A stretch of 31,378 bases of DNA, taken from positions 1 through 31,378 of the IMG/VR virus record IMGVR_UViG_2648501787_000011; one strand, 5' to 3'. Shown piece by piece: positions 21,086-31,378 of this stretch (its first letter is position 1; each line of letters opens with the position of its first letter). The notes under the pieces are model-generated. The model searched no databases, was not told the origin of the DNA, and was given only the letters and a program-made list of their open reading frames with translations. The translations under genes and the position numbers were made by a program. This DNA is from a virus. Lineage: Duplodnaviria; Heunggongvirae; Uroviricota; Caudoviricetes.

Positions 21086-21682
21086 TCACCCCCGCGTGGC
21101 GGACATGATGCCTAAAGGGGTATCGATGATTTCCAGACAGGCGTCGGTCAGCTTTTCCATGCGGTTAAACCAGCCGTTCAGGTATTTACCCTGGGCGGGT
21201 TTTGACTTGATGATGTCGGCATAAAAGCGGGAACGACGGACAATGCAGCGGGCCAGCAACCAGTCCGGGGTGGACAGACTCACGGCCTTACGGGTACGCG
21301 GGCCGATGATGCCGTCAGCATCCACATCAGCGGCTTCCTGCAAAATCCTGATAGCTTTTTTAACGCCATGCTGAACGGCTGCATCGAACACAAACATCGC
21401 CACGCCATCAGGCCACTGGTCACATCCGGCAGGCAGCCAGTAATCGCGCCAGTAAATCTGCGCGACCTGTTCGCGGGTTAAATCCCTGATGCGGGTATCC
21501 GGTTTACCGTCGCCGCTGACATCGGTTTTGCCGTCAATCACACCGTCGCGGCGGTCAGAAATGCCGTATTTGGTTTCGCCGCCACGGTCAGTGGGGTCAT
21601 TGACATAGACGCCTTCGATATCGGGACGCAGAATAAAATTCAGCGCATGTTCAAAGGCCGGGGAGAATTTCAGATTTTCCAT
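21086..21682 (-). CDS. Endolysin, GH108-type N-terminal domain plus peptidoglycan-binding domain
   Basis: 198 aa; N-terminal motif IEGVYVNDPTDRGGETKYGISD matches the GH108 signature EGGY-N...D-GG-T-YGI; no N-terminal hydrophobic SAR segment; AGGTG RBS 7 nt upstream. Confidence 0.75.
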   Translation of the reverse strand: MENLKFSPAFEHALNFILRPDIEGVYVNDPTDRGGETKYGISDRRDGVIDGKTDVSGDGKPDTRIRDLTREQVAQIYWRDYWLPAGCDQWPDGVAMFVFDAAVQHGVKKAIRILQEAADVDADGIIGPRTRKAVSLSTPDWLLARCIVRRSRFYADIIKSKPAQGKYLNGWFNRMEKLTDACLEIIDTPLGIMSATRG

Positions 21683-21737
21683 AAAAGCACCTGTGAAGCA
21701 GATTTAAACGTGGTCTGTTTCATGGTGCCGGAGGCAT

Positions 21738-21761
21738 AAAAAAAGCCGGATTTACCGGCTT
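21738..21761 (-). terminator. Rho-independent terminator (minus strand) between secreted-protein gene and lys
   Basis: Same AAGCCGG-TAAAT-CCGGCTT hairpin plus T7 tract as at 14177-14200 (27-nt identity). Confidence 0.6.
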
Positions 21762-21781
21762 CATTGAATTAAAAAAGATGA

Positions 21782-22261
21782 CTACTCATCACCTTTGATG
21801 GAGCAATCTATTACCATATCGTTACCCATCTTGAGAAATTTGGTTTGCATGAGAAAACCCTGTATCACATCAGTTAACCCATACCCTTCAACTTTTGTAG
21901 CTGAAACTACCATGTCAATAATTCGTTTCTGCTGTTTCTCTGTTAGTTCGCCAATTGCTGACTCCGCAACTCGCGAGCATGCCACAAAAGAAGACAACAC
22001 ACCTGAAGGATTGTTTTCATAATCCTTCACTGTCGTCGTTGAGCTGACGACTTTATTGTTGATCGTAAATACCCCGAATTTACTGTGGGCAGTTTCTGTT
22101 CCACCGTTCTTAATTGAATCGCCCCCTTTAAGAGGCTTCCAGCTATTTAGTGCAATGAGGTCTTTTTCTGTAAGACGTTTTTTGATGACATCTTCAGCTG
22201 GCAGTTTTGCCGCATTCGCGCAAAATACGCCCAGTAAAAGTATAAGAGGAAAGTATTTCAT
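21782..22261 (-). CDS. AT-rich secreted/periplasmic protein of unknown function (moron candidate)
   Basis: 159 aa with clear signal peptide MKYFPLILLLGVFCANA; lower GC than flanking phage genes; ATG overlaps the mor stop (ATGA). Confidence 0.65.
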   Translation of the reverse strand: MKYFPLILLLGVFCANAAKLPAEDVIKKRLTEKDLIALNSWKPLKGGDSIKNGGTETAHSKFGVFTINNKVVSSTTTVKDYENNPSGVLSSFVACSRVAESAIGELTEKQQKRIIDMVVSATKVEGYGLTDVIQGFLMQTKFLKMGNDMVIDCSIKGDE

Positions 22262-22659
22262 GACTCATCCTTAAATAGTTGCATTTGATATTTTTCACGC
22301 TCCAGTCGGCGCATTCTTTTGATGGCCTGATATACCGTTTTGTATGTCACTTTGTAACGCTGCACCAGCTCCGCTACGTTTTTCCCATCAAAATCATGCC
22401 AGATGCGCATGTCTCTGATAAGATTTTCCAGTATTTTCCCTTTCGGAACATATACCTGAATCCCACCGATATGATTGCAAATCGCCACTACCAGCTCAAG
22501 GGAGTGGGCAGGGTTAACTCCAAGCCTTATCAGCTCCTGTCGCAACAGAGCATTCAGCTCAGCCAGTAAAGATGGGAATCCCGATTTTTCCTGAACATCA
22601 TCAAAATATTCAAGGATACTGTCGTCCTGATAATCACCAAATAAATCTAGCTCTTTCAT
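22258..22659 (-). CDS. mor: Mor/C-family transcriptional activator (Mor by position)
   Basis: 133 aa; C-terminal HTH GKNVAELVQRYKVTYKTVYQAIKRMRR and N-terminal LFGDYQDD resemble Mu Mor; ATGA overlap with upstream gemA-like gene. Confidence 0.75.
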   Translation of the reverse strand: MKELDLFGDYQDDSILEYFDDVQEKSGFPSLLAELNALLRQELIRLGVNPAHSLELVVAICNHIGGIQVYVPKGKILENLIRDMRIWHDFDGKNVAELVQRYKVTYKTVYQAIKRMRRLEREKYQMQLFKDES

Positions 22660-23207
22660 AGAACTATTCTCCCGCTGTTTCTGGCGCGGGCATACGCACT
22701 GGTCAGTGCATCATATCCGCGCAGTTCCCGCCCGGTTTCGCTCACAGGTAAAGGCACGCCATGTCGGGCAAAGGCTTCCCGAATGCAGCGCATATGCCAC
22801 TGTTTGAGCGTTTCGAGCACAACCTGCAACGATTCCCCATGACACCAGGCAAGCGTGGAAACACCCTGACCGCCATTACGTCTGGCCGTCAGGCGTTCAA
22901 CGTATTTGTCCAGCGCGACGTCGCTGATATCGGAGACGAAACCATCAAGAAACATCTGCTGCCAGATTTTATAAATCTTCTCGCGCGGTGTGACATACCC
23001 CTTAAAGCGACGGCGGGGATGTTTTTTCTGCTTCTTAAAACCGCGCTCTTTCATGGCATTGAGCACCTGTTCCAGTTGTGTAACGGACAGCTCGCGGCAA
23101 CTGGTCTTGCCCGTGCACTGCACCAGAAAGGCGCGGTAAGTGTCATCGTCGAGGTGCAACTCCCGGCGGGCAACATGAATTAATTTAATCAGGGATGTGC
23201 GGCTCAT
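22656..23207 (-). CDS. gemA: GemA-like protein (Mu gp16)
   Basis: 183 aa; directly upstream of mor with overlapping stop/start, as gemA-mor in Mu. Confidence 0.6.
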   Translation of the reverse strand: MSRTSLIKLIHVARRELHLDDDTYRAFLVQCTGKTSCRELSVTQLEQVLNAMKERGFKKQKKHPRRRFKGYVTPREKIYKIWQQMFLDGFVSDISDVALDKYVERLTARRNGGQGVSTLAWCHGESLQVVLETLKQWHMRCIREAFARHGVPLPVSETGRELRGYDALTSAYARARNSGRIVL

Positions 23208-23520
23208 TATGTCCCCCGGATTTAAAAATTAATTCAGTGTTGAATAGCTCTTTACTCATTCGCTGTAGCACATCAAGGGCGGCAACTGCCGCCACTTTAT
23301 CCTGGCTGGCAATGATTCCCCGCAACTCTTCGATAATCCATGCAGGACTTAATGATTCAGCAATCATCATGCGCTTTTCTGAAATTAAATTTTCTCTGGC
23401 CTGCTCAAAGTGCTGGTATACAACATTATCCAGAAAATAATTTACATCTTGTTCTGACATACCACTGGAAATTAAGGTTGCAGCCATTAAATCAGCATCA
23501 GTAATCATCTGTATTTTCAT
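23185..23520 (-). CDS. AT-rich hypothetical protein (early accessory region)
   Basis: About 111 aa from ATG 23520 (GAGG 9 nt upstream); AT-rich relative to neighbouring phage genes; no recognisable motif. Confidence 0.45.
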   Translation of the reverse strand: MKIQMITDADLMAATLISSGMSEQDVNYFLDNVVYQHFEQARENLISEKRMMIAESLSPAWIIEELRGIIASQDKVAAVAALDVLQRMSKELFNTELIFKSGGHNEPHIPD

Positions 23521-23695
23521 TTCGTAATACCTCTTCGCAATAAAAGATTTCACCGGGATAACGTTTTTGTATGCGCTCCATCACCTGCATACATGCCTGC
23601 TCTGTGGGCCAGATTTTTTCTGTTACCGGGATAGCATCACAGGCATCATTCCCGCAGGTGCCAACCAGCAGGACAAAGCCAATTGACTTAATCAT
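23498..23695 (-). CDS. Small Cys-containing signal-peptide protein (possible lipoprotein / exclusion-type protein)
   Basis: About 65 aa from ATG 23695 (MIKSIGFVLLVGTCGNDACD...); hydrophobic N-terminus followed by Cys; four Cys in total. Confidence 0.4.
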   Translation of the reverse strand: MIKSIGFVLLVGTCGNDACDAIPVTEKIWPTEQACMQVMERIQKRYPGEIFYCEEVLRNENTDDY

Positions 23696-24227
23696 GCTCA
23701 CTGGCTTCCTGTGTTGCCGCCGGAACCGGTGAATAATCAAGAATGAGATAGCGCATGACGTGGTCGGTGATATTCCAGCCACTGGAGCCACAAATAAAAC
23801 GTCCCAGCCGGATATCGATATACGCCATCACAAAACGGGGCATTCCCTGTTTGCACATTTCATCGCCCACTTCTGCAACGATGTAAACCGACTCGCAGGT
23901 CAGTACGCCTGTCGCAAATTCTTTTGCCAGTGCCGGAATGGCATTGCCTTCCAGCCAGGGCAAAGAGCGGCGGAACGCACACCATTGAGCATCATCAACA
24001 GCGGGGTGCTCCGTTGTGTTTCGTCTTACCGGCGGCGTCGGGCGAGGGCGCGGAACATCATAAAACCCGTTGCATTCTGTCAGCATTCCGGCATCAACCG
24101 CATCACGCAGGAAATACACCATTGAAGAAGGTGGCATATTCATTTTTTCCGCCAGAACGCCACAGGTCAGACGTCCGTAAGCCCGTAATAATGTACTGAC
24201 ACCGTTCAGAACTTTTGCATCAACCAT
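23688..24227 (-). CDS. Hypothetical early protein
   Basis: 179 aa ORF between gam and the AT-rich ORFs; Cys-rich; no recognised domain. Confidence 0.5.
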   Translation of the reverse strand: MVDAKVLNGVSTLLRAYGRLTCGVLAEKMNMPPSSMVYFLRDAVDAGMLTECNGFYDVPRPRPTPPVRRNTTEHPAVDDAQWCAFRRSLPWLEGNAIPALAKEFATGVLTCESVYIVAEVGDEMCKQGMPRFVMAYIDIRLGRFICGSSGWNITDHVMRYLILDYSPVPAATQEASEHD

Positions 24228-24325: not shown

Positions 24326-24850
24326 TTAAATACCGGCTTCCTGTTCAAACGGAATAATAGAAAAATCTTCAATGCCCGATTTAACTGTAATTCCGGCAAC
24401 ACCTGCGACCGCTTTCGGTTCCAGTAAAATCGCTTCCTTGTTGATTTCCTGTTTCGTGCGAATAAAACGTTGCAGGCCAAGACGCTCCAGCGTTTCCATC
24501 ACCGCATCCACTCCGCGAATACTTACCGATGGTGGGCGCTGACGCCATTGCACATCACCGGTAACGAGGTTAGCACTTTTCACTTTGCCGCCGTTCGTCA
24601 GCTCGTCACGGTTCGCTTCACACCATCCCTGAACGCCTTTTGAAAGGGTTTCAATACTGGTTTTAAGGGGTGCAATCTGTGAGGCGTATTTCTCCGTAAT
24701 CTCAGCGATAGCGTCATTCATTTCCGTTTCAAGTCGTGCCGCTTCGCGTTGCAGGTCACCAATCCGGCGGATATCACATACCACGGCATCGCGGGATTGC
24801 GGAACATAAGTCGCTGCGGCGTTCCTGATTCGTTTTGCTGACTTAGCCAT
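24326..24850 (-). CDS. gam: Host-nuclease inhibitor Gam (Ku-like DNA-end-binding protein)
   Basis: 174 aa, same length as Mu Gam; sequence recognised as Mu Gam-like. Confidence 0.85.
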   Translation of the reverse strand: MAKSAKRIRNAAATYVPQSRDAVVCDIRRIGDLQREAARLETEMNDAIAEITEKYASQIAPLKTSIETLSKGVQGWCEANRDELTNGGKVKSANLVTGDVQWRQRPPSVSIRGVDAVMETLERLGLQRFIRTKQEINKEAILLEPKAVAGVAGITVKSGIEDFSIIPFEQEAGI

Positions 24851-26141: not shown

Positions 26142-27080
26142 TTACGTGCGCAGCAGGGTTGAAATATCAACGTCCAGGTCTAATTCACGGAAAGCCTGAC
26201 GCAGATAATCTTCATTAACACGTTCACCTTTACCGTGGGCGGTCATGGCAGCAAGGCGCAGCGAGTGGTTCAGGATGCGAAGCGCACCTGGCTTTTGTGC
26301 AATCTGCTGTAATAATTCCCGCTCGTTTTCGCCGGTAATTTGCCAGGCATCCGCAATGGCTTTTACATCATCAATTTTGGTTTTATTGATTGCCGTCCGT
26401 TTGGCAATACGGGAAAACAGGCGGGCAAATTCAACCGTTCTGTTACCACCGGTCATGTTTGAATAAACACGGTGATTCCCCATCAGAACAAGGCCAATAC
26501 GGGCGGACTCCTGTAACAGGCGGAGTTCTTCCAGAACCTCAGCGCCAAGATGATCAGCTTCGTCGATAATGACCAGCCCCTGGGTACCTTCAAGACGGCG
26601 TCGCAAAGCGCGGGAGAGTGGCCCCTTACGGCGTGGTGCGTCATTCATTCCCAGTTCATAAGCCAGTTCAGTCAGGCATTCCAGAACACTGGCACAGGAT
26701 GGGGTAATGGTAATCATCCAGACATTGTTATTGGTGCGACGAAATTCGCGGGCCGCTTCAGTTTTTCCCACACCTGGATTACCGCAGATAACAGAAATAC
26801 TTTCAGTCAGGCTGGCAAAACGCATACTCGTCCAGATTTGGCGTGCTGTTCTGGTTTCCACAAAACGTGGTGGTTCTGGCAGCTCTGCGGCACGGTGATA
26901 GTTCTCCAGCCAGCGTTCCAGCATCTGCGCAACACGTTCATTGTCGCCGTTGTACTTGTTATTCACGAATGCGCTTAACGTTCCTGCGGCCACGCCAGAC
27001 TCGCGTGCAATTTGTGCATAAGTCGCTTTTTCACTTTCTACAAGCGTGCGCAGTCCTGCGCGAATATCGGAAATATTCAT
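26142..27080 (-). CDS. B: Transposition target DNA activator B (AAA+ ATPase MuB)
   Basis: 312 aa; Walker A GNPGVGKT; recognised as near-identical to Mu B along its length. Confidence 0.95.
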
Positions 27081-27118: not shown

Positions 27119-29107
27119 TTAAATGGCTTTTTTACGTCTGTTCTGTTCCAGAATATCCAGCGAATGATTCAGATATTCATCACGATCAGTTTCATATTCA
27201 TCATCGGGTTCCTGGTATTTCACCTGCACCGTGTTACCGGAAGGCCGGAAAATACCAACAACCCTTGATTCTGGCGCTGCTGCTTCGGCTATCTGCGGCA
27301 GCAGTTCAGCAACTTCCAGCGCGTCCATTTGCTTCTGCGCCTTAATGGCTGCTTTAGTTGCAGATTTCAGTTGTTTCTGGCGGCGGCGATATTCGCGGCC
27401 TGCCGCAGCATCATTAAATGCAACAGGTGCCAGACATTCCGCTTCACAGATAAACCGACCGTCCAGGGTGTAACAATAAACCGTGCTGTGTAACTGCTGT
27501 GGATCAAACCTGACCACAACTTTTTTCACGCCGGCATTCATTAACGCCATGTTGTAATAAACGTTTTTCGCGCCTTTAAGGGAGCCGCCAACTTTAAGCG
27601 TAAACTCGCCTTTGCGTGAAACGTTCACCGCCTCGGCAGGCAGTAACAGCATCCGTTTTTGTTCTTCGGTTGGCTTACGCACAATCGTTCTGGCGTATTC
27701 ACGCTCGAAAACATCATCAAACGAGAGTTTGCCCCCGCACATTTCTGTTTCACGGCCTGTTCTGGCATTGAACATCGCAACACCTTCAGCAAGGGTTTTC
27801 AGAAACAGCTCTGCATCAACAGCACGGTCGCCATAGTTATCAGGTTTTGCCTGCGGATTTGGCCCCGTATATGCGCCAGCCAGTGCCGGATGCTTATCAA
27901 TGTATTCTTCAAGCCCACCAACACCGAAAGCGCGTTCAACAGGTTTTGCCTGGCCCCAGCCTTTACCGGCAACAACGCTTGTCCAGTGCATTTTTGCGCC
28001 CATCAGTAAAAACAGCCCCTTTGGATCGTCCTCTTTCACTTTAAAGCGGTAACGATTGGGCGCGCCCCCCGTCAGCCATTTATTCGCTGCACCACGGGTG
28101 TTATCAATGGTGATGTGAAAATCTTCCGGGATGCCGTAGCGTGTCACCACATCCATGAATGAGAGGCGAATTGAATCGATGTTCTCGCTTACATCGCAGC
28201 GCCAGCCCAGAATTTTTCGGGTTTTCACATCCTGCCAGAACCATGTTTTCGGGCGGATCACATCACCGTTAAACCAGCGTACAAAGACGTTATGCAGATA
28301 ACCGTCGCCGTTGATCCACTGCATGGCGTCCAGGTGTTCCACAGTTCGCTGCTGTGCCGGTATCAGATGCATCAGTGCATGTTCACCTTCACGGCAGGCA
28401 ACAACCATTGCCTCGTCCAGTTGTTGAATCCGGCGAAAGGCCGTGGCACGGGAGGGAATACTCCAGCCATGCTCGCGGGCTGCCAGTTCCAGACGCTCAT
28501 AACATTTGCGGAAGGCGGGTTTTTCCGGTCGCAGATAATCTGCAATCAGAAACTGCCAGGCATCCTCGTCAAATTCACTTTTGTGAACGTTGCGACGAGA
28601 TGCACCACGTCCATCAACAAGTGCAGCCGCCCAGTCAGGCTTCGCAAACTTCTGTACCTGGTAATACTTGTCCCGCAAAGTGGATGCGCTGACCTGGTAA
28701 TGGCCTGCAACGGTCGCAAATGCCGTTTTCGTTGAAATCCCCTGGTTCAGCATTTCGTCTGCAGCCTGAACCGCAGGCAACCATTTTTCAGCAAGTCTGC
28801 GCTGGGAATCGCTGGCGTTATCCCATTTGCTCCACAGTGCCTCACGATCATAATCATGGGCTTCCAGCGTGGGGCGGGCGATTTCAAAACGGCCCTGGCT
28901 TGTTTCAATTCTCCCTTGTTGCAACAGAATTTCAGCACGTAATGTGACAGGAAATGATTTGATATTGAATTCAAATGATACACCTTTAGTTCCTGCAACC
29001 TGCCTGAACTCCCAGCCTTCTCTTTGTGCCTTACGTGTAATGTTAGTGGCTTGCTTTGGTAAACCTGCCAAACCGAGCAACTCTTTTGCTGTATACCATT
29101 CTTTCAT
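27119..29107 (-). CDS. A: DDE transposase A (MuA), D108-type N-terminal domain
   Basis: 662 aa; from about residue 70 onward recognised as Mu A; first ~65 aa differ from Mu and resemble the c repressor N-terminus in this window. Confidence 0.95.
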
Positions 29108-29114
29108 AGCGCAC

Positions 29115-29336
29115 CTAGTATCGAGACGGCCAAATATCTTGCGGTGTCATTCCCAGTGCATCTGCAATGATTTTCTCCGCTTTCGGATATCTCTTATCCA
29201 AAGCATTTTTTAATGTTGAAGACGAAAGATGATTAGATCTTCCCAATTCAGCTAGTGACATATTGCGTTTTCGTAGCGCTGCAACGATGTCAGCTCTGTG
29301 CCAATCTTGGCTGTTAGTTCTTTTATTCATATGCAT
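29115..29336 (-). CDS. ner: Ner DNA-binding regulator
   Basis: 73 aa (D108 Ner length as I recall it; Mu Ner is 75 aa); conserved DWHRADI..A.L...ELGR and IWPSRY C-terminus; first early gene upstream of A. Confidence 0.9.
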
Positions 29337-29521
29337 TTCATGTAATCCTTTCAGATTCCCCCGTGAGCTACGCTATAAAGTAGCTCACGGCATATCGTGC
29401 AATGTAGTGTGGAATCACTTTCAAATCAATAGTGATTTGAGAGGATTTACCGCAATTTTGCATAACGGCATGATTTTTATATGAATTTATTTTATCTCTA
29501 TTGAAATCACTAGGATTTTAA
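29337..29521. promoter_or_regulatory. Immunity/operator region between ner and c (divergent promoters, Ner and repressor sites)
   Basis: Perfect inverted repeat CCGTGAGCTAC-N8-GTAGCTCACGG at 29361-29390; palindrome TCAAATCA-ATAG-TGATTTGA at 29421-29440; repeated (G)AAATCACT 9-mers at 29411-29419 and 29504-29512; AT-rich stretch at 29470-29500. Confidence 0.7.
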
Positions 29522-30046
29522 ATGATGTCTTTTGAAATCAAAGAATGGTTTAATGCGAAAGAGCTGGAAGGGATGCCTGGTGTACCAAAGTTGGCGACTA
29601 ACATTACCAGGAAAGCTGTGGCGGAAGATTGGGTAAAACGTCAGCGTCACGGTGGGAAAGGTGTCGCTTATGAGTATCACATCAACAGTCTGCCAGAAGA
29701 AACACGCAGGGCCATTAAAGGAGCCTCACTTTCTGATAAACCAGTGCATACATCAATCGCCCATACAGTTGATGAGAGGCTAATTTATGCAATGAGCTTC
29801 TTAACACCAGATGAGCAGGCCGCAGCTGTGGAGATCATTCGTGTAGCAGGGATTAAAGGTCTTATGCCTACAATTGTCAGTAAAGATAAGGCATTAGAGG
29901 CATTAGGGATTACTGTGGAGCAACAGAAAACCCTGCAAACTCTTCAGGCATTACCACCGGAAAAAGTGAGAGAGATTTTGTCTCAGTATGAAGGCAAAGA
30001 ACATAATTTCCCTGTAAGAGAAAACGATGTAAAGAAGGCTGTATAA
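29522..30046 (+). CDS. c: Repressor c (Mu/D108 immunity repressor)
   Basis: 174 aa on opposite strand to early operon, between operator and attL; N-terminus shares a DNA-binding domain with A ([26 protein letters not shown]); C-terminus LPPEKVREILSQYEG...KKAV resembles Mu c. Confidence 0.85.
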   Translation: MMSFEIKEWFNAKELEGMPGVPKLATNITRKAVAEDWVKRQRHGGKGVAYEYHINSLPEETRRAIKGASLSDKPVHTSIAHTVDERLIYAMSFLTPDEQAAAVEIIRVAGIKGLMPTIVSKDKALEALGITVEQQKTLQTLQALPPEKVREILSQYEGKEHNFPVRENDVKKAV

Positions 30047-30179
30047 CAACCAGGTAATGGCTAAGACATAAACTTCACTCCAGGTTATTACATATGTAAG
30101 ATACCCAAACAGTGATGATTGTTTTTGATACACAGCACTTGCTGAAAGCCTGGTTGTTACCGTTTTTGAAGCATTTTTG

Positions 30180-30385
30180 AAGCTGTACTTGAAATGATGC
30201 GTGAAGTAATTGCTTTTCGTGTCTTTAATGAATCAAAAGCTGTTTCCAACAATCTTTCGCGTTTCAAGATGTAACGGCTAAAATCTATCCTACAGGCTTG
30301 CAAGCCCCGCTAAATCTAATCCCGCCAAATCCCGAATAATCCAATGTCCTCCCGGTTTTTTTCGTACTTCACGTGAATCAATACA
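30180..30385 (-). repeat. Mu-type left end (attL) with MuA-binding sites
   Basis: Reverse complement starts TGTATTGATTCACGTGAAGTACGAAAA (L1-like); second site around 30258-30275 contains TGAAACGCGAAAG (L2-like); further CGAAAA repeat inward. Confidence 0.8.
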
Positions 30386-30397
30386 ATGTTCAATTCC

Positions 30398-31378
30398 TTA
30401 CTTACTGATAAGACGGTCAAGGGCGACAGCCGCGATAATTAATCCGCCCATCACCACCAGTTGGTAATAGGTTTGTACCTGCAAAATATTCAGACCGTTG
30501 TTGATGGTGCCGATGATCAACCCGCCAATCACCACAGAGAAAATGCGCCCCTTGCCGCCGAAGAAACTGGTGCCGCCAATGATGGCGCTGGCAATGGCAT
30601 AGGTTTCAAAACCCATACCGGCAAGCGGTTCTGCGGCACCGAGTCGTGCAGTTGAGACGACGCCTGCCAGACCTGCACAAACACCGGAGATGATAAACAC
30701 CACCAGGATGTGGAATTTCACGTCAATCCCGGAATAGAACGCCGAGTTTTTGTTGCCGCCCAGTGCGTAGATGTTGCGCCCGAGCCGCATACGCGTTGTC
30801 AGAAACCAAAGGATGAGCGCGACAATTAGCGAGAAGATAACGGGGACAGGTATCCCAATTACGCTGGCGGCAAAGAAGTTCACGAAGTCAAATGAGAAGC
30901 CGTATACCGAGTTGGCATCGGAGATCACCAGCGTGATCCCACGGAAAATAGCGTTGGTGCCAAGGGTGATAATGAACGGGTGTAGTCCCGTCCAGTTGAC
31001 CAGGCAGCCGTTGATCGCCCCCAGTGCGCCGCCAACCAGTACACCGCCAATCAGCGCCGCGAGAAACGGATCAATACCTGCCAACATCAGTTTAGCGGTC
31101 ACCATACCGGAAAGCGCCAGAATCGCGCCAACCGAAAGGTCGATACCAGCGACCAGGATAGCGAAAAACTCGCCCATGCCGATCAATACCGTCACGGAGC
31201 TTTGCACAAAAATCTGGGTAATATTATTGGTGGTCAGAAAATATTCTGACGACAGCGAACCAAAAATGGCGACGATGATTGCCAGGATAAAAAAGGTGCC
31301 GTATTTATCCCAGAACAGCGCAAAGTTGAACGGTTTCTTCTCGCTCGCTTCGCTTTTTACTCTTGTGGTAAAGCCCAT
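30398..31378 (-). CDS. Host sugar ABC transporter permease (RbsC/AlsC family)
   Basis: 326 aa polytopic membrane protein; start codon is the last 3 nt of the window. Length and family fit a D-allose/ribose-type permease, but the gene name is not verifiable here. Confidence 0.85.
   Translation of the reverse strand: MGFTTRVKSEASEKKPFNFALFWDKYGTFFILAIIVAIFGSLSSEYFLTTNNITQIFVQSSVTVLIGMGEFFAILVAGIDLSVGAILALSGMVTAKLMLAGIDPFLAALIGGVLVGGALGAINGCLVNWTGLHPFIITLGTNAIFRGITLVISDANSVYGFSFDFVNFFAASVIGIPVPVIFSLIVALILWFLTTRMRLGRNIYALGGNKNSAFYSGIDVKFHILVVFIISGVCAGLAGVVSTARLGAAEPLAGMGFETYAIASAIIGGTSFFGGKGRIFSVVIGGLIIGTINNGLNILQVQTYYQLVVMGGLIIAAVALDRLISK

Follow-up and report, generated by a model that had tools for sequence, protein, structure and literature searches.

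What do Mu-like prophages of Escherichia coli carry between the conserved early genes gp11 and gemA, and where in the cell would the encoded proteins act? The question is raised by a stretch of 31,378 nucleotides (positions 1 to 31,378 of IMG/VR record IMGVR_UViG_2648501787_000011, hereafter the window), which is filled by a Mu-like prophage of E. coli in reverse orientation, with its early genes on the minus strand. At 23185-23695 it encodes two overlapping open reading frames (ORFs) of 65 and 111 amino acids, here named ORF65 and ORF111. An earlier interpretation made without database searches (the sequence-only reading) had described them as an AT-rich accessory pair, consisting of a lipoprotein- or exclusion-like protein and a protein lacking a recognizable motif. 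We find that ORF65 and ORF111 are real genes and that the interval harboring them is a hypervariable mosaic island. Our overall reading, which we regard as reasonably likely, is that they are cytoplasmic early accessory genes whose products would act on host targets. The part of this reading that places both genes among the cytoplasmic early accessory functions, and denies ORF65 the status of a lipoprotein, is held with considerable confidence; a host-binding role in takeover or counter-defence is put forward more tentatively.

Gene content and architecture of the gp11-gemA island

The two genes and the anchors that border the island are located as follows:
23498-23695, minus strand: ORF65, 65 amino acids, ATG at 23695, match to phrog_16556
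23185-23520, minus strand: ORF111, 111 amino acids, last base of the stop codon at 23185, match to phrog_1988
23688-24227, minus strand: gp11-like gene (Pfam Gp11_C, PF25754, E-value 9.7e-38), left anchor of the island
22656-23207, minus strand: gemA (PF06252, E-value 2.1e-31), right anchor of the island

ORF65 matches phrog_16556 over profile positions 2-55 of 55 (E-value 1e-28) and ORF111 matches phrog_1988 over positions 1-106 of 106 (E-value 7.4e-42), both being PHROG families of unknown function. Identical proteins are found on E. coli contigs (168 for ORF65, 159 for ORF111), always under the name 'hypothetical protein', and the same two coding sequences are annotated by RefSeq/PGAP in E. 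coli ETEC1732. Furthermore, both genes are under purifying selection among Mu-like loci, with ratios of nonsynonymous to synonymous substitution rates of 0.12 for ORF65 and 0.26 for ORF111.

The position and the AT-richness assigned to this stretch by the sequence-only reading proved exact. Its G+C content is 42.3% compared with 54.2% for the whole window, a value this low being reached by just 4.4% of all 511-bp segments. The flanking genes are richer in G+C (gemA 54.2%, gp11-like gene 52.0%) than ORF65 (43.9%) and ORF111 (40.2%). Equally low values occur elsewhere in the window, at 21587-22673, 28877-30572 and 57-607.

Comparison with relatives delimits the variable part sharply. The flanks share about 85% DNA identity with phages Mu, D108 and SfMu (about 85% for the gp11-like gene against Mu and D108, 84.6% for gemA against Mu gemA), while the stretch between them is unmatched. 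In Mu, the gp11-gemA interval contains gp12, gp13 (a Cys-rich zinc ribbon), gp14 and the reverse-strand gene gp15. A tblastn search of 50,697 phage records yielded no match in Mu or D108 for either ORF65 or ORF111, and profile comparison by hhalign gave probabilities of 0.4% for ORF65 against Mu gp13 and 0.6% for ORF111 against Mu gp14, so that homology is rejected in both cases. Both genes are thus absent from Mu and D108, the two phages with which the sequence-only reading had proposed comparison, which makes it most likely that they are dispensable.

The diversity of the interval was assessed in 45 loci carrying both anchors, taken from E. coli genomes, IMG/VR, Mu, SfMu and the window. Its length ranges from 63 to 2076 bp, and the 45 loci display 19 architectures assembled from about eleven families: gp12, the gp13 zinc ribbon, ORF65, ORF111, gp14, reverse gp15, cassettes for proteins of 120 and 129 amino acids, and three reverse-strand genes. 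All cassettes have a G+C content (0.42-0.49) below that of the anchor genes. Twenty-five loci carry ORF111 and 21 carry ORF65; the two occur together in ten, ORF65 is found without ORF111 in eleven, and ORF111 accompanies the gp13 zinc ribbon in 15. Direct adjacency of ORF65 and ORF111 is restricted to six of the 45 loci. The 484-bp interval of the window is the shortest version that contains both genes and is common to four loci. None of the 45 loci combines ORF65, found in 21, with the gp13 zinc ribbon, found in 22 (Fisher p 7e-11, with phylogeny ignored); both proteins are small and Cys-rich, and homology between them is undetectable. The gp11-gemA interval is a hypervariable mosaic island in which cassettes assort independently. 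The view that the Mu-like early operon carries these genes as variable cargo is therefore borne out by their absence from Mu and D108 and by the number of arrangements, whereas the designation 'pair' is not, ORF111 being present in just ten of the 21 loci with ORF65.

How cassettes enter and leave the island can be read from the gene junctions of the window:
23688-23695, minus strand: overlap of 8 nucleotides between the stop of the gp11-like gene and the start of ORF65 (ATGATTAA), a translational-coupling junction as read from the sequence
23498-23527, minus strand: ORF65/ORF111 junction with an overlap of 23 nucleotides (23498-23520), a hybrid copy of a repeat of about 20 bp with Shine-Dalgarno sequence and ATG, GAAGAGGTATTACGAAATGA
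23185-23207, minus strand: overlap of 23 nucleotides between the stop of ORF111 and the start of gemA, encoding the ORF111 tail GHNEPHIPD

The ATG of ORF111 lies at 23520 and is preceded by GAAGAGG nine nucleotides upstream. In E. coli UMNF18 (locus L003 of our set) the 120-amino-acid cassette is situated between ORF65 and ORF111, with the two copies of an imperfect 20-bp direct repeat on either side of it (GAAGAGGTATTACGAAATGA and GAAAAGGTATTAAGAGATGA, at about 2290-2262 and 1935-1910 on the minus strand of L003). The repeat comprises the Shine-Dalgarno sequence and start codon of the next gene, and the window keeps a single hybrid copy of it. ORF65 of the window has 65 residues compared with 60 in the shorter version, its last five (NTDDY) stemming from the ORF111 junction; the 120-residue protein ends in ...VLRDENTDDY and has NTDDY in common with it. 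In the same way, ORF111 and the unrelated 129-residue protein encoded at the same position both end in GHNEPHIPD, which is specified by the overlap with gemA. Going by this visible footprint, cassettes are gained and lost by recombination at short repeated junctions of Shine-Dalgarno sequence and ATG. Such exchange accounts both for the low G+C content and for the junction-encoded C-terminal tails.

Two further observations concern single members of the island set. In IMGVR_UViG_2529293240_000020, and in no other locus of the set, the island is interrupted between the 120-residue cassette and ORF111 by an element of the IS3 family, with orfA and orfB on the reverse strand. In four loci (L038, L039, L055 and L056) an ORF of 252 amino acids unites a domain resembling the 129-residue cassette with a gp13 zinc ribbon in one frame.

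Expression and possible roles of ORF65 and ORF111

On the minus strand the order of genes is Gam, gp11-like, ORF65, ORF111, GemA and Mor. The other early genes were assigned as follows:
27119-29107, minus strand: transposase A
26142-27080, minus strand: B, with small early genes between B and Gam
24326-24850, minus strand: Gam
22258-22659, minus strand: Mor

A consensus scan of the minus strand detected no sigma-70-like and no terminator-like site in 23185-23695, and the first terminator-like hairpin on this strand is found at 21762-21742, after the gene 3' of mor. Together with the overlaps between neighbors, this leads to the expectation that ORF65 and ORF111 are translated, through coupling, as part of the long early transcript. 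They would then be accessory genes of the Pe-driven early operon, made together with Gam, gp11 and GemA upon prophage induction or infection and not from the repressed prophage. Both proteins would remain in the cytoplasm and bind host components in early lytic development, serving host takeover or counter-defence.

For ORF65, the distribution of homologues adds to this picture. Across 80 representative-species loci, they are mostly chromosomal, syntenic genes of Erwiniaceae, and chromosomal copies exist in Yersinia as well. In Erwiniaceae the gene belongs to a conserved trio of small genes, with a gene for 66 amino acids upstream on the opposite strand and one for 77 or 78 amino acids downstream; Pfam contains no family for the 66- and 77-residue neighbors. 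In Mu-like prophages of Escherichia and Salmonella, ORF65 follows gp11 or gp12. Other homologues reside in a Klebsiella transposable prophage, in the SSB/Lar/theta early-left accessory region of Yersinia phage vB_YenM, and in Serratia prophages and Aeromonas phage pAEv1818, where the order is RecE-RecT-ORF65-Xis-Int and the ORF65 homologue overlaps the recT stop by 4-7 nucleotides. Judged by these matches, the ORF65 family is not specific to Mu-like phages. Erwiniaceae and Yersinia conserve this small protein on their chromosomes; ORF65 would be its phage copy, placed in the slot that gp13 occupies in Mu. Since a chromosomally conserved homologue exists, the phage protein probably engages the conserved partner of that homologue. 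A more elaborate version, which we consider speculative and rather unlikely to be correct in full, would have ORF65 act as a mimic or decoy that seizes the host partner early, with gp13 as the alternative occupant of the slot and with ORF111 and the other cassettes providing counter-defence matched to host repertoires.

Several points weigh against a cytoplasmic role in takeover or counter-defence. Neither protein matches a family of known function in Pfam, NCBIfam, PADLOC or the PDB sequences. The mutual exclusivity of ORF65 and gp13 was calculated with phylogeny ignored, and the promoter scan was a crude consensus scan. Four invariant Cys residues in a small protein could also point to disulfides in an exported protein, and the many chromosomal homologues could mean that ORF65 has a housekeeping-type role unrelated to host takeover.

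The searches behind the first of these points can be given in brief. PADLOC, which covers defence systems, returned no accepted hit, and no known anti-defence gene was identified in the gp11-gemA island. Profile searches of the PDB sequences with both proteins produced no match. Sub-threshold library scores (DUF1482 15.5 bits, DUF6308 16.9, GpsB 21 with a cut-off of 91, PDC-S06 11) were set aside as noise or, at most, leads. A literature search for DUF1482, the two PHROG identifiers and Mu gp11-gp14 found nothing, a remark on SfMu ORF14 being the sole relevant item.

The neighbors of some ORF65 homologues raise the possibility that the protein works in DNA-end or recombination biology, where it would modulate host nucleases or recombination, or protect against them, together with Gam or RecET. 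The overlap with recT in Serratia prophages and pAEv1818, the location in the window as the second gene after gam and the SSB/Lar/theta surroundings in vB_YenM all fit this proposal. We nevertheless deem it unlikely: no recombination genes lie next to the chromosomal homologues of Yersinia, Mixta, Tatumella and Pantoea, location in an early-left operon is equally typical of unrelated accessory genes, and neither fold nor sequence links ORF65 to DNA-binding or nuclease-inhibitor families.

ORF111 has a far narrower distribution. When 1.84 billion representative proteins were searched exhaustively, only six clusters emerged, and all relatives for which the context was recovered lie in Mu-like phages, upstream of gemA. 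Among them are ORF14 of SfMu and proteins of Mu-like Yersinia pestis phages (about 39% identity). The family alignment reveals a conserved core, AE(S/T)LS..WII..LR.I...DK.AAVAAL..L, and AlphaFold2 returned four helices with a predicted local distance difference test score (pLDDT) of 67.8 and a predicted template modelling score of 0.34. ORF111 is accordingly predicted to be a small all-helical protein, with low global confidence in the model. A fold search gave generic helical matches only and, as these stem from a poor model, they were rejected. The statement that the 111-residue protein has no recognizable motif still holds, as no family, structure or paper assigns a function to it. A relationship to other cassettes was also considered: hhalign gave a probability of 20% against the 120-residue protein and of 55% against the 129-residue protein, in the latter case with identities largely within the shared junction-encoded tail GHNEPHIPD.

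Could ORF111 then be tied to gemA, as part or regulator of the poorly understood 'gem' function, instead of being free cargo? The constant location upstream of gemA in Mu-like phages and the overlap with the gemA start in nine of 25 loci would suit such a tie. On the other hand, 20 of the 45 gemA-bearing loci, Mu and D108 included, lack ORF111, and in 16 of the 25 loci possessing it gp14-like or reverse-strand genes intervene before gemA, which makes a dedicated function with gemA improbable.

The proposed export and pairing of the ORF65 product

The most specific proposal of the sequence-only reading concerned the N-terminus of ORF65. The description itself was correct, as the protein starts with MIKSIGFVLLVGTC, that is a hydrophobic run followed by Cys. 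ORF65 could therefore be envisaged as a lipoprotein or another small protein exported to the envelope, where it would prevent superinfection or hide a receptor. To judge this we applied a lipoprotein rule of the PROSITE PS51257 type, which demands the pattern [LVI][ASTVI][GAS]-C with the Cys at position 15-35, lysine or arginine in the N-terminal region and an adequate hydrophobic region. Family statistics were derived from an alignment of 67 sequences (A5). The would-be lipobox of ORF65 reads V-G-T-C, with Thr at position -1 and the Cys at position 14, and its hydrophobic run extends over only about eight residues. In the family, position -1 is taken by Ala in 41 sequences, Thr in 13, Pro in nine and Ser in four, that is by Thr or Pro in 22 of 67. 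The bare lipobox pattern is matched by 45 of the 67 relatives, mostly as VSAC, and speaks for export. However, the first Cys is found at position 12 in 46 of them, 61 have no lysine or arginine ahead of it, and pattern, position and charge are jointly satisfied by a single relative.

Conservation and structure prediction point in the same direction. ORF65 is an acidic mini-protein with a net charge of -5 and four invariant Cys residues (C14, C19, C35, C53). A profile search collected 178 relatives with the consensus MLIGFVLLVSACGxDACDALPV...C...C; invariant positions in the 67-sequence alignment are G6, F7, L10, V11, C14, C19, A21, P23, C35 and C53. The conservation peak comprises residues 5-14, with a mean entropy of 0.27 compared with 1.43 for residues 31-58. 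The N-terminus is thus more strongly conserved than any other part of the protein, the reverse of the pattern that signal peptides show. AlphaFold2, supplied with the family alignment, returned a model with a pLDDT of 83.4, strands at residues 2-14, 19-29 and 50-59 and a helix at 32-45. Residues 2-14 lie within the sheet (pLDDT 86/71; residues 1-10 at 86), so the hydrophobic N-terminus is predicted to be a core strand of a compact beta-beta-alpha-beta fold. Fold searches with the ORF65 model found no informative relative.

With the lipoprotein rule failing and the N-terminus forming a conserved strand, no export signal was predicted, the very outcome that the sequence-only reading had named as speaking against its proposal. 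Periplasmic disulfides would suit four invariant Cys residues, yet processing as a lipoprotein would leave three, an odd number, and there is no promoter-like site from which ORF65 could be expressed in the prophage. ORF65 most likely stays in the cytoplasm, as predicted from these features, and we regard an exported, exclusion-type protein as very improbable.

Least credible of all, to the point of being nearly dismissed, is the idea that ORF65 and ORF111 form one two-gene module such as a toxin-antitoxin system or a two-component inhibitor: in the window they are adjacent, overlap by 23 nucleotides and have low G+C content in common, and ETEC1732 and two IMG/VR contigs have the same arrangement, but ORF111 is combined with either ORF65 (ten loci) or gp13 (15 loci), ORF65 lacks it in eleven, the two are neighbors in only six of 45, and the ORF65 family is widespread beyond Mu-like phages without any relative of ORF111, itself confined to six clusters, which shows that they are not a unit.

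In the same prophage, an ORF for 159 amino acids (21782-22261, minus strand) directly follows mor and ends ahead of the terminator-like hairpin mentioned above. It has a G+C content of 41.5%, matches phrog_38744 and belongs to no Pfam family. Its product begins with a textbook Sec signal, MKYFPLILLLGVFCANA, with predicted cleavage ahead of AK, with a hydrophobic region of 16 residues and an AXA cleavage site. Given this predicted signal, it would be a better candidate for an exported moron than ORF65. After the early operon follows a lysozyme gene (21086-21682, minus strand), of the glycoside hydrolase family 108 type as annotated in E. coli relatives; the corresponding place in phage Mu is without a gene. 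The AT-rich patch at 28877-30572 takes in the 5' portion of the transposase gene together with a divergent ORF for 174 amino acids (29522-30046, plus strand), which probably encodes the repressor. No RNA family of Rfam was detected anywhere in the window.

Comparison with known systems

ORF65 and ORF111 are uncharacterized genes in a known kind of feature, namely a mosaic accessory island of a temperate-phage early operon. The find is an ordinary one, will not surprise phage specialists and has modest practical value. It does remove a false lead, the notion of ORF65 as a lipoprotein or exclusion gene, and it marks out a compact, easily surveyed hotspot in Mu-like prophages of Escherichia and Salmonella, namely the gp11-gemA interval, in which about eleven small families are exchanged. 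Should anti-defence or host-takeover genes of Mu-like coliphages be sought, the island is a reasonable place for screening. The ORF65 family, with its four invariant Cys residues, its highly conserved N-terminal strand and its phage and chromosomal copies, is tractable for a search for the host partner.

Prophage lipoproteins of the Cor/Llp type exclude superinfecting phages. ORF65 shares with them small size, a prophage location and a hydrophobic N-terminal run followed by Cys. Unlike these proteins, it fails the signal-peptide rules, its N-terminus is predicted to be a structural strand, and no lysogenic promoter was found.

A resemblance of a different kind exists to DUF1482, the family of E. 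coli YebW (PF07358). YebW is similar to ORF65 in size, also has a hydrophobic start, shares a (V/I)(Y/W).TEQ.C motif and contains four Cys residues in similar order and spacing (9, 15, 29 and 43 in YebW; 14, 19, 35 and 53 in ORF65), as seen when the sequences are compared. Against the DUF1482 hidden Markov model of Pfam, ORF65 scored 15.5 bits (E-value 0.017) and missed the gathering score of 25; weak hits were obtained for just four of 67 ORF65 relatives, and hhalign against YebW gave a probability of 5%. The connection would be a distant superfamily link at most. The only report on DUF1482 is a dominant positive screen in which yebW contributed to ceftriaxone, gentamicin and levofloxacin resistance (PMC9676061). 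In E. coli K-12 (1921780-1924969), yebV-yebW(DUF1482)-pphA is located beside yebY-yebZ-yobA, and the Serratia prophage with RecE-RecT-ORF65 homologue-Xis-Int is integrated beside yebY-copD-copC. This shared yebY neighborhood is suggestive: yebW and pphA may be the remnant of a prophage at the same site.

The closest counterpart of ORF111 is ORF14 of Shigella phage SfMu (YP_009152200), which is about 39% identical over 92% of the length and resides in the same island. It sits between gp13-like and gp14-like genes without abutting gemA and is equally uncharacterized. SfMu ORF14 has been noted to have no homologue in Mu or D108 (PMC4406740).

For the island as a whole, the nearest known system is the semi-essential early region of Mu (gp11-gp15, from gam to gemA), which represents the same operon with the same position and the same flanking genes (about 85% DNA identity). 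Its genes, like those of the window, are small, overlapping, dispensable and of unknown function, although none of gp12, gp13, gp14 and gp15 is homologous to ORF65 or ORF111. More generally, the island resembles accessory hotspots known from temperate phages, among them the exo-xis region of lambda and those of Pseudomonas Mu-like phages. Lambda orf60a, orf61, orf63, ea8.5 and ea22 all scored at or below 2.8 bits with the ORF65 profile (hmmsearch at maximum sensitivity), and kinship in sequence with these proteins is rejected. Like the gp11-gemA interval, the hotspots have a fixed site flanked by conserved genes, can hold any of many small cassettes, are low in G+C and are expressed early. The likeness to exo-xis extends to position, as recT and xis directly flank some of the ORF65 homologues.

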